From the NCBI GenBank assembly GCA_051599415.1, contig AP039692.1, forward strand, positions 186,001-250,000: a DNA stretch of 64,000 bases, read 5' to 3'. Below, one piece after another: positions 402-6,114 of this stretch. The notes beneath the pieces were generated by a model, which did not search any database, had not been told where the DNA came from, and worked only from the letters and a program-made list of their open reading frames with translations. This DNA comes from Savitreella phatthalungensis (Eukaryota). The translations under genes were made by a program, and so were the position numbers. The number at the start of each line of letters is the position of its first letter. Position 1 is the stretch's first letter.

Positions 402-1598
402 ATGGGCTTGATTGACAAGCTGAAGGGCCACAAGAAGGAGGAGAGCTTTGACGATGTGGCAGCGAGACAGCAGCAGCAGAGCACCGGAAAGAGCAGCAAG
501 CGAAGGTCTTTGAGCCTCGGGCGCAAGTCTAGCAAGAAGCTCGGTGCAAAGGACGTCGACGCTGTCCCGCCTGTGCCAACTGAAGGTACGACTGCAACGT
601 ATCCTGTTGATGGTACGCACGGAGTTGAGTCTGCTCGGGAGAACGCTGCCGCGAACTCCGTAGCTCACAGCAACGGAAACACGAATCCGTCTGAGATTCC
701 GGCGGCTTCTTCATCTGCCACGCCGGGCGCGGGTATCACGAATGCTGCATCCGCGGCAAAGGCGCAGGGTTCGGCAAACGAGAAGTCTGTCGACGGCATC
801 ACGTCTGGAGTGCACTCACTCCATATCCCTGCCAGCGACCCACGCTTCGACCGATCCAAGCTGAGCGATACGCCTTTCGATGAGGCAGCATTCTTTGGCG
901 ACTCACAGACCACGACAGACTTCCAGCAATCGCAGCTTAAGGCTGTGATTCAGCAACGTATCCAGCCGACCGTGCACGAGATTGTACATCCAATCTTCCA
1001 CCACGAGCACCACGTCACACACCACCAAACACGCATTCAGCCGGTGCTTGAGCAGGTGATCTTGCCCGCAAAGCACTTTGTCATCATCGAAGGCAAAAAG
1101 TATGAAATCCTTCCGGAAGCTGTCGTCAACCACGTTGTTGTGCAGCGTGAGTACATTCCGATGAACGTCAAACCGCAAGTCATTGTACACAATTACGTGA
1201 ACGGGGAACCGCATGTGGGACCGATCACCGGCGTTGGCGCTAGTCCACTCAACCAAGACGTTGCAACTGAGCACCAGCGCTTCATCAACGCTTCGTACGA
1301 GCCTAATGCGGCAGCCAAGCACCAGAAAGATGTGCCCGCAGCTGTACTGGACTCTCGGCCTGCTGGACAAATCGTTGACACGGGCTTTGACGCGAGCAAG
1401 ATTGATCGTGCTGCTGCGAACCTGTTCAACAACCCGATCTACAAGGGTCCGATTGAGAATCTCAGCAACCACGCCAATATGACGACCACAGGTTCAGCAT
1501 ACAGTGCTGCCGGTATTCACCAGGTGCCAAACACGTCGAAACCTCTGCCAGGCGTCAATCTCCCAGGCGGCAACTCTGCAGCGGTCACATCTAAGTAA
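402..1598 (+). CDS. Hydrophilic protein with a His/Val-rich segment resembling the fungal 'allergen'-type uncharacterised family
   Basis: 398-aa ATG ORF. Central segment QQRIQPTVHEIVHPIFHHEHHVTHHQTRIQPVLEQVILPAKH resembles that family from memory; flanks are low complexity. Confidence 0.7.
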   Translation: MGLIDKLKGHKKEESFDDVAARQQQQSTGKSSKRRSLSLGRKSSKKLGAKDVDAVPPVPTEGTTATYPVDGTHGVESARENAAANSVAHSNGNTNPSEIPAASSSATPGAGITNAASAAKAQGSANEKSVDGITSGVHSLHIPASDPRFDRSKLSDTPFDEAAFFGDSQTTTDFQQSQLKAVIQQRIQPTVHEIVHPIFHHEHHVTHHQTRIQPVLEQVILPAKHFVIIEGKKYEILPEAVVNHVVVQREYIPMNVKPQVIVHNYVNGEPHVGPITGVGASPLNQDVATEHQRFINASYEPNAAAKHQKDVPAAVLDSRPAGQIVDTGFDASKIDRAAANLFNNPIYKGPIENLSNHANMTTTGSAYSAAGIHQVPNTSKPLPGVNLPGGNSAAVTSK

Positions 1599-2130: not shown

Positions 2131-4980
2131 ATGGCAAAGACGGTCCAGGTCACATTTCCTGCACCAGAAGATGGACAGAGTGTGCGAATTGCCGGTGCAT
2201 GGAGCAATTGGGCTCCTGTTGACGGACACTTCGACAAAGCCTCTTCCCAATACGTTTTCGATGTTCCTGCTGAGGAGCATGGTAGGGGAACACCATACAA
2301 ATTTGTAAAGTCATCTGGAGAATGGACACTCAGAGATGGTCTACCTACCACGCCAGATGAACAAGGTGTCCTCAATCACAAGGCTGTCCTGCACAGAGCC
2401 TCAAATAATGCTCTCGACGAAGCCATGACATCTGCTGAGCTTGCAAAGCCGGCACGCTCAGATCGAGACCATCTACCTCCACCGTCTGCAGTTCACGCAC
2501 CAGTCGCTATCGGTACGGAAGTTATCAATGCAAGAGCAAAGGGAAACAACTACTCAGATAACGAGAACCGCGCTCGCCATTCCGGCACGGGCGCCGGCAT
2601 TGTCGATGCGGCTGACCCGAACATTGTTGTTGGCGAGGAACGCGACTCGCGTGCCAGGACACGCCCTCAATCTGCCGCAGGCATGGCTGGACACAGGCGG
2701 GAAGCCTCCGTCGACAGTCATCTCAATCCTTCCGCATCATCCTTTGTCCCAGGACAGCACGGTCCTGCCCCATCGCGCGCAAATCAAGGCAGCGGGATCC
2801 CGAGGCCAAAATCGGCCGGCTTCCACCAGCAACCTCAGCCGAGGTCTAATGTCCAGGGACACGCCAGACATAAATCACGCTCCCGTTCCCGTTCTACCAT
2901 GCAGGGTCATCGTAAACAGGCTTCATTTTCGTCATCACACTCTCCTGTGCTGCAACAGGGCCAGGCTCTTGGTGCGGCGCATCACGACGACCTCAACCCT
3001 TCAGCAAAGGAATTCAAGCCACAATTCGACCAACCCACGCGTCCTGTCCAGCACGTTTCGGGGTATGCAGCGGCGCTCAAGAAGGCATCAAGCAACGAGT
3101 TCAAAGCTCCATTGCCCAAGACTAAGAGTAACGAGTCTGCCTCACCAACAACTGAGATCCATGAGCCAGTGGCCTCGCCCGCCTCAAGCCAGTCCAATGC
3201 CAATAGTGCTGCACCCGTAGAGAGCTATGCTGAGATGGCCAAACACCAGCCCACGCAGCAGCACGCCCCAGCATCAACTCAGAAGAGTACATCTCCGCAA
3301 CCCACGAAATCGAACCAGCAATCTAGAGATGCTCTCGGCGAAGGTGTGCATGTGATCGCTGACAAGTCCAGGCAGGCTGCCAGCACAGTTTCGCAGAAGG
3401 CAGCGGATGCTGCAAGCGTCACCTCCGATGCAGCTGCGGCCGCTGAAGAAAAGCTAGCTTCCGGTGCAGCAGCTGCGAAGGACGTTGCTCACGATGCCAC
3501 TGTCAAGACAGAAAACGCTGCCAGTCGCGGCGCTCGAATGGCTCAGGACACAGCCGCAGATGTCGCATCCGCAGCGCGCGAATCCGCAACTCAGGTAAAG
3601 CAGACTGCTGGCGAGATCACCGAGACCGTGTCAGAGAGAGCTGCTGCCGCCAGTCAAGTCATACAGGAGAAGGCAGTGGAAGCAAGTGACGCTGCTGCTG
3701 AGGGCATTGCATCTGCTAGAGAGTCTGCACGTGAGACGGCCGCGAGCGCAGGTAAATCTGTTGCCAACGCGGCGTCCTCTGCCAAGGAACAAGCGTCCGA
3801 GGCCGCAGAATCAGCCAAGCAGACTGCCGCTAACATCTCATCTGCTGCTGCTGACAAGGCAGCCGATGTGACTGCTAGAGCACAGGAGCAAGCTCGTGAC
3901 GTCCGTGATGTTGCTGCCCGGGCTACGGCTGAAGCAAAAGCGCGTGCGGCCGAGACTGTTCAGGCGGCAGAGTCGACTGCAGAAGATGCAGCTGCAGCTG
4001 CCAAACAGAAGGCCAGCGAAGTCCGTGATGCTGCTCTCGAGACCGCCGCAGATGTCAAAGACCGTGCAGCTGAAACTCTTCAGTCTGCCCGTGACACTGC
4101 CAGCGCAGCTGCCGACAAAGCAGCCGAGATCGCTTCGGCAGCTAAGAAGCAGACTGTCGATGTGGCTCATGCCGTTGCGGACGAAGCCGCAGATGTAGCA
4201 GCCGCAGCTAAGCAAGAAGTGGCTGCTGCTTCTCAGATCGCTCAGGAGAAAGCCAGTGAAGCTGCACAGGCCACGAGCGAAGTCCTGGACGCTGGAAAGG
4301 AGAAAGCTGCTGAGCTATCTGCCGCTGTTCAGAACAAAGCTTCTGATGTGGTTGAAGCCATCTCGCAGAACGCTTCATCAGCAGCCGATTCAGTGCGCGA
4401 GGTTGCTGCGGAATCACGCGACAACGCTGCGCACGCAGCCGCTCAGCTTTCCGACGGCGTTCGTCACGTCGCCTTCAAAGTGCACGAGCAATCACACACG
4501 CTCGCTGACGATGTCGCGACCGCGCTCAATGACGCTAGCGCCGCCATCTCCACGAGAGCATCCAACGCCGCCGATGCAGTGCAATCGACGATCGCCAACG
4601 CAGCCGCCACCGTCGAGTCGAGCATCTCGTCTGCGCGCGCTCGTGTCCAGGCAGGCGTCGATGCGCTCGAGGACGAATCGCTCAAGCAGCGCGCTCGCAT
4701 TGATGGCGACACCCGGAAATCCATCTCCGTCAGCACAGGCGCTAGCAAACCTACCGTCATCGTCGAAGACGCAGAGCCAGCTGCCGAACCACACGGCGAA
4801 GCAGAAGCTTCCGCCACTGTCACCAAACGTCCTACCACCTCGCAATCCCGGCTGACGGTGAACGAGAGGCGGTCGACAATCTTTGCCACTGTCTTCTACG
4901 CTGTCTTTGGCAGATTCTTGCCGCGTGGTGGACTTCGTGGAATTCTCGATCGCTTGGCATTCTGGCGTCCCCAATCATAA
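2131..4980 (+). CDS. CBM48/AMPK-beta-like glycogen-binding domain + two PAM2 motifs + LEA-like Ala-rich helical repeats (Crp1/Mdg1-like N-terminus)
   Basis: 949-aa ORF with ACCATGG start. N-terminus VTFP...VRIAGAWSNW...YKFV...GEW...DEQGVLNH is CBM48-like. SHLNPSASSFVPG and DDLNPSAKEFKP follow, then about 400 aa of A/E/K/D/T repeats. Confidence 0.85.
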   Translation: MAKTVQVTFPAPEDGQSVRIAGAWSNWAPVDGHFDKASSQYVFDVPAEEHGRGTPYKFVKSSGEWTLRDGLPTTPDEQGVLNHKAVLHRASNNALDEAMTSAELAKPARSDRDHLPPPSAVHAPVAIGTEVINARAKGNNYSDNENRARHSGTGAGIVDAADPNIVVGEERDSRARTRPQSAAGMAGHRREASVDSHLNPSASSFVPGQHGPAPSRANQGSGIPRPKSAGFHQQPQPRSNVQGHARHKSRSRSRSTMQGHRKQASFSSSHSPVLQQGQALGAAHHDDLNPSAKEFKPQFDQPTRPVQHVSGYAAALKKASSNEFKAPLPKTKSNESASPTTEIHEPVASPASSQSNANSAAPVESYAEMAKHQPTQQHAPASTQKSTSPQPTKSNQQSRDALGEGVHVIADKSRQAASTVSQKAADAASVTSDAAAAAEEKLASGAAAAKDVAHDATVKTENAASRGARMAQDTAADVASAARESATQVKQTAGEITETVSERAAAASQVIQEKAVEASDAAAEGIASARESARETAASAGKSVANAASSAKEQASEAAESAKQTAANISSAAADKAADVTARAQEQARDVRDVAARATAEAKARAAETVQAAESTAEDAAAAAKQKASEVRDAALETAADVKDRAAETLQSARDTASAAADKAAEIASAAKKQTVDVAHAVADEAADVAAAAKQEVAAASQIAQEKASEAAQATSEVLDAGKEKAAELSAAVQNKASDVVEAISQNASSAADSVREVAAESRDNAAHAAAQLSDGVRHVAFKVHEQSHTLADDVATALNDASAAISTRASNAADAVQSTIANAAATVESSISSARARVQAGVDALEDESLKQRARIDGDTRKSISVSTGASKPTVIVEDAEPAAEPHGEAEASATVTKRPTTSQSRLTVNERRSTIFATVFYAVFGRFLPRGGLRGILDRLAFWRPQS

Positions 4981-5097: not shown

Positions 5098-6114
5098 TCA
5101 GAAAAACGCAGCAGTCACTGCTCCGTGCACATCGCTGATAACTACCCCGCGATCGTCAGTCGACGCTCCAGCGGCCACATACAATGGAATGAAGTGCTCG
5201 TCAGAGTCGTGAGCCTTTCGATATCCCGGATGACCCAAGACTTTGTTGACGAAAACATCGTGATTGTGTGGTGTGGTGAGTGCAAGTTTGACGAGACTCT
5301 CGAACTCGACTACTGACTGAGATGCCTGGGAAGGTGACCACTCGGTCCAGTTGCGGAAAGTGTGGATCGATAACCCGCCACTGAGGATCAAGACACCTTC
5401 GTCCCTGAGTGATGTCAATGCGCGACCGATCGCCAGATTCTCTTCAGCCGTACGTCCTTGTGAGACCTCGACGATTGCCGGCATTCTGACGGCTTCGTCT
5501 GCTGTGGTAGAGGGATCTGAAGCGGTCGGTAGACCGGTCGAGGGGTTGTAGTATCCCGTGAGATCATCACCCCCAAACATGATCCGCAATGGGACGAAAC
5601 AGCCGTGATCGAGAGCGCGTTGGTCAGTGACGGCGGTGGCGCTGATGCCTGCGGTGTTCAGCAGCGTGAGCACGCGATCTGAGATGGTCGAGTCAGGCAG
5701 CGTTGCACACTTGACCTTGTAGGCGGCGTCGGGGAAGCCGTAGTAGTCGTACAGGAGGTTGTCGCGCTGGTAGTTGGCTGAGTTGCGTGCAATCTCTACC
5801 TGGAGCGGCCCTCTCTGCGACGCGTTCTCCCAGTGAGCAGAGAAGAGGACGATGGCTTTCGGGCGGTAGGTCCGGAGGAGATAGGGTCCGAAACGTTGTA
5901 GGAATTTGAATGCTGGCCCGCCGTGACCGCCGGTGAAATCCTTCGATGCAGCCATGGGCGATCGAGCGACCCATGCAGCCACCTCGCTCATCAGCGCTGG
6001 TGACCCATGAGCGAAAGAAAATGTCGGCAAACGCGATCCCGGCAAGTGCTTCGGCAGAAGAGTCTCTAGAGATATACCGTCAAGGCTTCCGGCTGGTGAA
6101 GCGTCGACTGTCAT
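5098..6114 (-). CDS. Extradiol ring-cleavage dioxygenase, LigB / 4,5-DOPA dioxygenase-like
   Basis: Motifs FAHGSP, SAHWE, YDYYGFP, DHGCFVPL, GGLSIH and EHFIPLYVAAGA. Confidence 0.9.
   Translation of the reverse strand: MTVDASPAGSLDGISLETLLPKHLPGSRLPTFSFAHGSPALMSEVAAWVARSPMAASKDFTGGHGGPAFKFLQRFGPYLLRTYRPKAIVLFSAHWENASQRGPLQVEIARNSANYQRDNLLYDYYGFPDAAYKVKCATLPDSTISDRVLTLLNTAGISATAVTDQRALDHGCFVPLRIMFGGDDLTGYYNPSTGLPTASDPSTTADEAVRMPAIVEVSQGRTAEENLAIGRALTSLRDEGVLILSGGLSIHTFRNWTEWSPSQASQSVVEFESLVKLALTTPHNHDVFVNKVLGHPGYRKAHDSDEHFIPLYVAAGASTDDRGVVISDVHGAVTAAFF

Follow-up and report, generated by a model that had tools for sequence, protein, structure and literature searches.

The window analysed here, 64,000 bp of the Taphrinales yeast Savitreella phatthalungensis (contig AP039692.1, positions 186,001–250,000), contains a gene, P0001 (bp 2131–4980, forward strand), whose 949-amino acid product consists, in order, of a CBM48 domain, two PAM2 motifs, a 446-aa proline-free class-A amphipathic helix and an aromatic tail. 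Its sequence suggests a variant of the adaptors that carry a CBM48 domain and an amphipathic tail, one that stands out by a conserved PAM2 block and by the insertion, in a sister lineage, of the isopentenyl-diphosphate isomerase IDI1. We put about even confidence in the idea that P0001 is a Taphrinales tether that links glycogen to a lipid surface and recruits Pab1 as well. The open-access literature yielded no paper on this architecture or on the IDI1 fusion, and none on a direct link between glycogen and messenger ribonucleoprotein particles (mRNPs) through a module that binds poly(A)-binding protein (PABP).

Architecture of P0001

P0001 is a single-exon gene, read as one continuous frame in which an internal scan for strong splice-donor words found none; the genome (12.7 Mb in 27 contigs) has long single-exon fungal genes. 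Seventeen of 23 strain variants, taken from two low-depth contigs of other runs, are synonymous, so the open reading frame (ORF) fits a coding gene.

The N-terminal domain (residues 3–87, bp 2137–2391) scores 25.2 bits (E 1.9e-5) against Pfam AMPK1_CBM (PF16561), whose gathering cut-off is 26.8. Its AlphaFold2 (AF2) model is all beta (pLDDT 82.6), and Foldseek finds 17 matches to it at E ≤0.001, with the SEX4 and AMPK-β CBMs on top (best SEX4 match E 8.8e-5, TMq 0.74). The predicted structure confirms a real CBM48 fold, a beta-sandwich of the AMPK-β/SEX4 type, and so agrees with the CBM48-like domain named in a preliminary description that was made from the sequence alone. W27, K57, W65 and N82 align with W, K, W and N of AMPK-β and are invariant in all nine aligned rows, and Q78 occupies the position of an AMPK-β Leu; we take these five AMPK-β positions to be glycogen-binding residues. 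Three genes of the genome match AMPK1_CBM, namely AMPK-β (L005), a Crp1-like gene (L006, so labelled for its layout) and P0001. The AMPKBI domain is present in L005 and absent from P0001, which rules out P0001 as the AMPK-β of this genome; the Crp1-like gene is likewise a separate gene.

The two PAM2 motifs lie at bp 2716–2751 and 2986–3021. The first has S in place of the E of the consensus xxLNxxAxEFxP (PMC9249222), and the second, LNPxAxEFKP, is closest to it. Pfam PAM2 (PF07145) scores 30 bits on P0001 against a cut-off of 20, and among 20,000 shuffles of the sequence none had two motifs and two had one, so that this part of the preliminary description stands. At least two PAM2 places exist in the genome, and among the matches listed there are only the two of P0001. 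The Pab1 of the genome carries the MLLE signature KITGMLLE. PAM2 and MLLE are a textbook pair with a solved structure, and co-folding of the MLLE domain with the second motif gave a score of 0.39, against 0.02 for the best of three controls, a value that may reflect memory of that pair; contacts agreed by at least 78% between runs, with a partner pLDDT of at least 53. In the calibration of this test, 5 of 78 solved complexes reached the mark with scores of 0.60 or below, and of 180 mismatches 4 passed, all of them in that range; the result is thus weakly consistent with binding. Taken together with the motifs and the partner domain, it suggests that the PAM2 motifs of P0001 would bind the MLLE domain of Pab1. 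A metagenome scan with the PAM2 block gave 295 pattern matches, none of which was confirmed.

The helix occupies aa 405–850 (bp 3343–4680) and would be about 67 nm long if continuous. Its hydropathy has a period of 3.641 residues (power 65, against a maximum of 10.7 in 30 shuffles) and stays in phase, within 27–61 degrees across ten windows. In its 446 residues there are no prolines, one aromatic residue, 149 alanines and nine leucines; none of the 151 residues in the 120-degree apolar sector, which is a wide Ala/Val surface, is charged, and on the wheel K and R lie mostly at ±60–90 degrees on both flanks with D and E opposite, the layout by which a class-A amphipathic helix is defined. The net charge is −25, the mean hydrophobicity 0.06, the mean moment 0.25 and the aromatic fraction 0.002. 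AF2 predicts four long helices in the region, and a fold search with it had no match at E ≤0.001. The preliminary description had spoken of about 400 residues of Ala-rich helical repeats of the LEA or perilipin 11-mer type. The Ala-rich helix is there, but the repeats are not: the period is about 40/11, not 11/3 (3.667), which speaks against tandem 11- or 22-mers. The helix is not LEA_4 (PF02987) either, on which it scores 14.6 bits where the cut-off is 51.1; it does have the class-A amphipathic character of LEA group 3. Nor was any DNA tandem repeat found that explains the helix as its origin. As for perilipins, the physics of the helix matches that of lipid-coating helices, whereas Pfam finds no PAT or Perilipin domain in P0001.

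The basic/aromatic tail (bp 4876–4977), which proved conserved and amphipathic and has the sequence quoted in the preliminary description, is predicted by AF2, with low confidence there, to form two short helices, and it ends in LAFWR as in the orthologues. Its hydrophobic moment is 0.35–0.36, and 0.52–0.64 in four orthologues. Hydropathy rules out a transmembrane tail, as the highest 19-residue Kyte-Doolittle mean, 1.13, is too polar to span a membrane.

Orthologues and the inserted isomerase

Six orthologue clusters were recovered (P0043, P0047, P0053, P0054, P0057 and P0058/P0175). An exhaustive CBM search gave 51 matches, mostly multi-stretch CBM repeats, and of the 12 that were fetched two were orthologues (P0043 and P0047); the N-terminal region of P0043 gave four matches from 383 candidates and added P0053 and P0054, and a search for long IDI proteins (120 listed) added the other two. 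The P0001 query of the Atlas returned only AMPK1_CBM clusters below 0.9, a word-index search with aa 1–140 returned no match from 274 candidates, and the Atlas query with P0054 gave no usable match. Among the several multi-repeat CBM proteins matched is P0002, a 983-aa protein with eight CBM-like stretches.

The six clusters have in common the CBM, motifs of PAM2 type, the SRSRS stretch, the block after the second PAM2 motif, EPAA[ED] and the LA[FI]WR tail, and their linkers vary freely in length and content. The preliminary description had named lack of PAM2 conservation in orthologues as grounds for giving up its reading; by our own motif pattern, each of the six clusters retains two or three PAM2-like motifs, so that the reading withstands this check, and P0047, P0053 and P0054 have a tandem pair at the place of the first.

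A more distant set of proteins of filamentous-ascomycete type, as their inferred taxonomy indicates (P0048 and L009–L011; ‘AMPK glycogen-binding domain-containing protein’ in the Atlas), has, besides a CBM48 domain and a SYAxxA-like motif, a tail that is both aromatic and amphipathic. These proteins have the CBM closest to that of P0001; L009–L011 have no PAM2-like match and no long helix, and none of the set carries IDI. A profile of the orthologue CBMs scores L009–L011 at 24.5–30 bits and also prefers P0048, with 9.9 bits for the Crp1-like L006 and 8.4 for L005. In a quick CBM tree of 88 columns the P0001 lineage groups with these relatives (SH-aLRT 89, unstarred), which points to a third lineage of CBM48 proteins in fungi, with a layout of CBM48 followed by an amphipathic tail. 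On a tail profile the filamentous-type tails take the top three ranks of 349 ORFs, at non-significant E values of 0.34–0.62. Since CBM48 and tail occur in these relatives without PAM2 or helix, this seems to be the older ascomycete design, and the PAM2 motifs, the helix and IDI would thus be Taphrinales additions to it.

The preliminary description had not foreseen what lies in the helix region of the orthologues: in 6/6, an intact IDI1 stands in frame between the PAM2 block and the tail, followed by 150–295 further residues without a stop. For example, aa 553–775 of P0054 match human IDI1 at E 1.5e-71. The motifs NTCCSHP, EHE[IV]DY and TPWF, which we take to be catalytic motifs of IDI, are present in all six fused domains (P0043 misses one of five patterns), and the junction that follows, RLG.E/A.E/A/S.L[FY].KI, is conserved in 6/6. 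The fused domains are 74–84% identical to one another and 70–75% identical to the IDI1 of this genome, values that indicate separate species and not copies. In S. phatthalungensis IDI1 is a free 270-aa gene on contig C13.

In an IDI tree of 28 rows, of which 21 are outgroup rows drawn from long IDI proteins that lack the scaffold hallmarks, the free IDI1 is sister to the six fused copies (support 99/91 for the fused clade and 100/99 for the seven together), and the branch of seven lies outside the Pezizomycotina and Saccharomycotina rows. Six long IDI proteins out of the 120 listed show the scaffold hallmarks; the list contains no protein annotated at NCBI as coming from Taphrina or Protomyces. 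The sister position points to one insertion, and a single insertion of IDI1 after the lineages split would be the simplest history; the alternative is a later fission in the lineage of this genome. A helical period is seen on either side of IDI in P0053 and P0175 and mostly on a single side in P0047 and P0057; in P0043 it is weak, and in P0054 it is absent. By this pattern a shorter helix is probably ancestral, IDI probably landed inside it, and the present lineage probably holds the longest form.

The fused genes appear to be unspliced frames, judging from an apparent retained intron in the CBM of P0054 and from five that begin within the CBM. The mean length of introns in Taphrina is about 50 bp (PMC4007546 Table 2), and it is therefore unlikely that IDI is a nested intronic gene. 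That paper treats only tRNA-IPT, and no IDI fusion was found in three of its supplements. The fused genes show no conserved internal start that would yield a short IDI isoform; the nearest upstream Met is 20–110 aa away.

Other long IDI proteins, from Hortaea, Elasticomyces, Friedmanniomyces and Ogataea, are unrelated joins. In black-yeast IDI1 models (Hortaea, Elasticomyces and Friedmanniomyces; P0065, P0067–P0072 and P0074) a long C-terminal extension is common across genera; it may be a fusion of its own or a join that recurs among the gene models. Seven lichen-fungus models of Teloschistaceae type (P0059–P0064 and P0066) join IDI to an MLH1-type mismatch-repair protein, as judged by Pfam accessions, and these may be either a fusion or an annotation join.

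Proposed tether function and alternatives

In the proposed mechanism, the CBM48 domain would bind glycogen granules, in keeping with the glycogen synthase and debranching enzyme encoded in the genome, and the aromatic tail, as its conservation and the example of Atg45 suggest, would insert shallowly into a membrane or the monolayer of a lipid droplet. The PAM2 motifs would recruit Pab1-bound mRNPs through the MLLE domain, and the weakly hydrophobic 446-aa helix could fold on the same lipid surface and coat it by many weak contacts, in the manner of Plin4. The outcome would be a starvation or drying-stress hub that unites the carbohydrate store, mRNPs and lipid. In the sister lineage IDI1, inserted once into the helix region, would be tethered by the same tail; this insertion hints that the surface is a site where isoprenoid lipid is made or stored, that is, the endoplasmic reticulum (ER) or a lipid droplet. 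The scaffold between glycogen, mRNPs and lipid put forward in the preliminary description is thus kept as far as the PAM2-like motifs, the MLLE signature and the conserved tail carry it, but the helix is a largely lineage-specific part of it.

The closest functional parallel is Atg45 (Yil024c), the 189-aa glycophagy receptor of Saccharomyces cerevisiae, whose CBM binds glycogen and whose C-terminal helix binds membranes, and which needs its Atg8-interacting motif (AIM) (PMC11145338). Both proteins have an N-terminal PF16561/CBM48 domain, a C-terminal amphipathic helix with an aromatic pair near the C-terminus and, in a layout counted as shared, a middle part that is disordered in Atg45; P0001 is far longer (949 aa) and adds the PAM2 motifs and the giant helix. 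The likeness described here is one of layout; P0001 may act as a tether in the way Atg45 does, yet it is not classed as Atg45. Crp1, which is found together with glycogen synthase at the periphery of the cell (PMC11145338), and Mdg1 share with P0001 an N-terminal CBM48 domain and low complexity, and from these it is set apart by the low score of L006 given above. Upa1 and Upa2 of Ustilago maydis likewise combine PAM2 motifs with a C-terminus that targets membranes or endosomes, but have a FYVE domain (Upa1) or a GWW motif (Upa2; 10.1101/455378) where P0001 has its aromatic tail, and lack CBM48. No described protein with the whole architecture was found, as the preliminary description had supposed, although the outer frame of CBM48, low complexity and amphipathic tail is known from Atg45 and the filamentous-type proteins.

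Like the perilipin 4 helix, that of P0001 is very long, weakly hydrophobic and nearly free of aromatic residues, with a similar mean moment (0.257 in Plin4, whose aromatic fraction is also 0.002; PMC5889406 Table 1). It would be a fungal physical counterpart of the Plin4 helix with the opposite net charge: Plin4 has exact 33-mer repeats and a net positive, asymmetric charge, and charge reversal abolished its droplet binding (PMC5889406).

Several points weigh against the tether. The CBM lies below its Pfam cut-off and appears to lack one of the presumed binding residues, with Q78 in place of Leu; the Pfam PAM2 cut-off is passed by only one of the six orthologue clusters (P0043); and a tail profile built without P0001 scores P0001 at only 16.6 bits. 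The genome has a separate perilipin, a Perilipin_2 gene (contig C9, 409250–410245), and the P0001 helix, unlike that of Plin4, carries a net negative charge in a symmetric arrangement. P0054 lacks the long helix, and P0043 and P0057 have only a short one; the helix is therefore not essential to the family and seems largely lineage-specific, though partly shared with the orthologues. A fusion can be a neutral passenger event, and PAM2 motifs can be functionally dispensable, as they are in Upa2 (10.1101/455378).

The charge of the helix bears also on a rival which we consider unlikely, though the best of the three: P0001 may be a soluble LEA-type stress protein whose helix folds on drying and protects generally, CBM48 and PAM2 placing it in glycogen/mRNP condensates with no specific lipid target. 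This would suit the class-A charge layout, the net negative charge, the abundance of Ala and the low mean hydrophobicity, six AKEKA-like cores in the helix, and the fact that the only LEA_4 candidate of the genome falls within it; S. phatthalungensis moreover inhabits leaf surfaces, where humidity is variable (PMC8877625). The LEA_4 score and the lack of a true 11-mer tandem repeat oppose it, as do the conserved aromatic tail, which suggests a membrane anchor, and the absence of the helix from part of the family.

Less probable still is that P0001 does what Atg45 does, serving as a glycophagy receptor that delivers glycogen, and possibly mRNPs, to the phagophore. The outer layout shared with Atg45 favours it, and P0001 is by elimination the CBM48 gene that is neither AMPK-β nor Crp1-like. 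The genome also has no candidate for glycogen phosphorylase (PF00343), which was found in 12 of 14 control genomes; this blank may be a real loss or a gap in the assembly or the search, and because a debranching enzyme is present (with glycogen synthase and one GH15 glucoamylase-family gene) it is not used as support. P0001 has no AIM-like words (W/F/Y-x-x-L/I/V) in its linkers and two inside the tail helix, and linker words occur in 3/6 orthologues with none family-wide; routing of IDI1 to the vacuole would be odd, and the reported homologues of Atg45 are confined to Saccharomycetaceae and Candida albicans (PMC11145338). It is equally improbable that the helix is a self-associating coiled-coil rod of mixed 11-/7-residue register that serves only to keep the glycogen/Pab1 end and the membrane end apart, with IDI1 a neutral passenger in a tolerant linker: in its favour are a period of 3.641 in phase over 446 aa, which suits near-straight helical bundles, the four AF2 helices and the freely varying orthologue linkers, but nine Leu, a wide Ala/Val face with interfacial K/R on both flanks, the empty fold search and the conserved junction after IDI all speak against it.

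A bolder proposal, tentative and in our judgement rather doubtful, is that a Taphrinales-specific hub couples glycogen, Pab1-mRNPs and lipid droplets or ER, that in one branch IDI1 exists solely inside this hub and places isoprenoid synthesis at the glycogen-lipid interface, and that the present genome shows the state before insertion, with a 446-aa lipid-coating helix. The inserted enzyme belongs to the core sterol/carotenoid pathway and sits in mid-scaffold, in frame. IDI-squalene synthase fusions, of which there are many among the long IDI proteins listed, also hold IDI and another module in a single chain, but they join pathway enzymes end to end, whereas the orthologues hold IDI inside a non-enzymatic glycogen/PABP scaffold. 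The fused and free IDI1 lineages form a natural before-and-after pair for testing enzyme compartmentalisation. It has been stated as an open question whether glycogen adaptors of the Atg45 kind exist in yeasts beyond the Saccharomycetaceae (PMC11546884), and the genes described here are a candidate lineage of that outer design across ascomycetes, with a putative PABP-binding module gained in Taphrinales.

Short conserved motifs and neighbouring genes

Several short motifs of P0001 accompany the domains. A block DH..P...G.E[VI]I (bp 2467–2535) is kept in 4/6 orthologues, and the conserved basic Arg/Ser-rich stretch (SRSRS, bp 2866–2925) lies between the PAM2 motifs. The extension after the second PAM2 motif, QF.QPT..V.H.SGYAAALKK (bp 3022–3117), is nearly invariant, and no other linear motif of the family is as well conserved; a second motif, of SYAxxA type (bp 3220–3246), is kept in 4/6 orthologues, and a similar SYAQVAA is present in L009 and L010. 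This SGYAAALKK/SYAEMAK pair, conserved beyond the PAM2 motifs and without a Pfam family, is a candidate undescribed short linear motif. EPAA[ED] (bp 4774–4788) occurs in one or two copies in every orthologue.

Upstream of P0001, an ORF of 398 aa (bp 402–1598, forward strand) has no Pfam match and a His-rich stretch at about aa 185–230, which may resemble fungal proteins annotated as ‘allergen’. Downstream, and convergent with P0001, lies a gene for a LigB-type ring-opening dioxygenase (bp 5098–6114, reverse strand).

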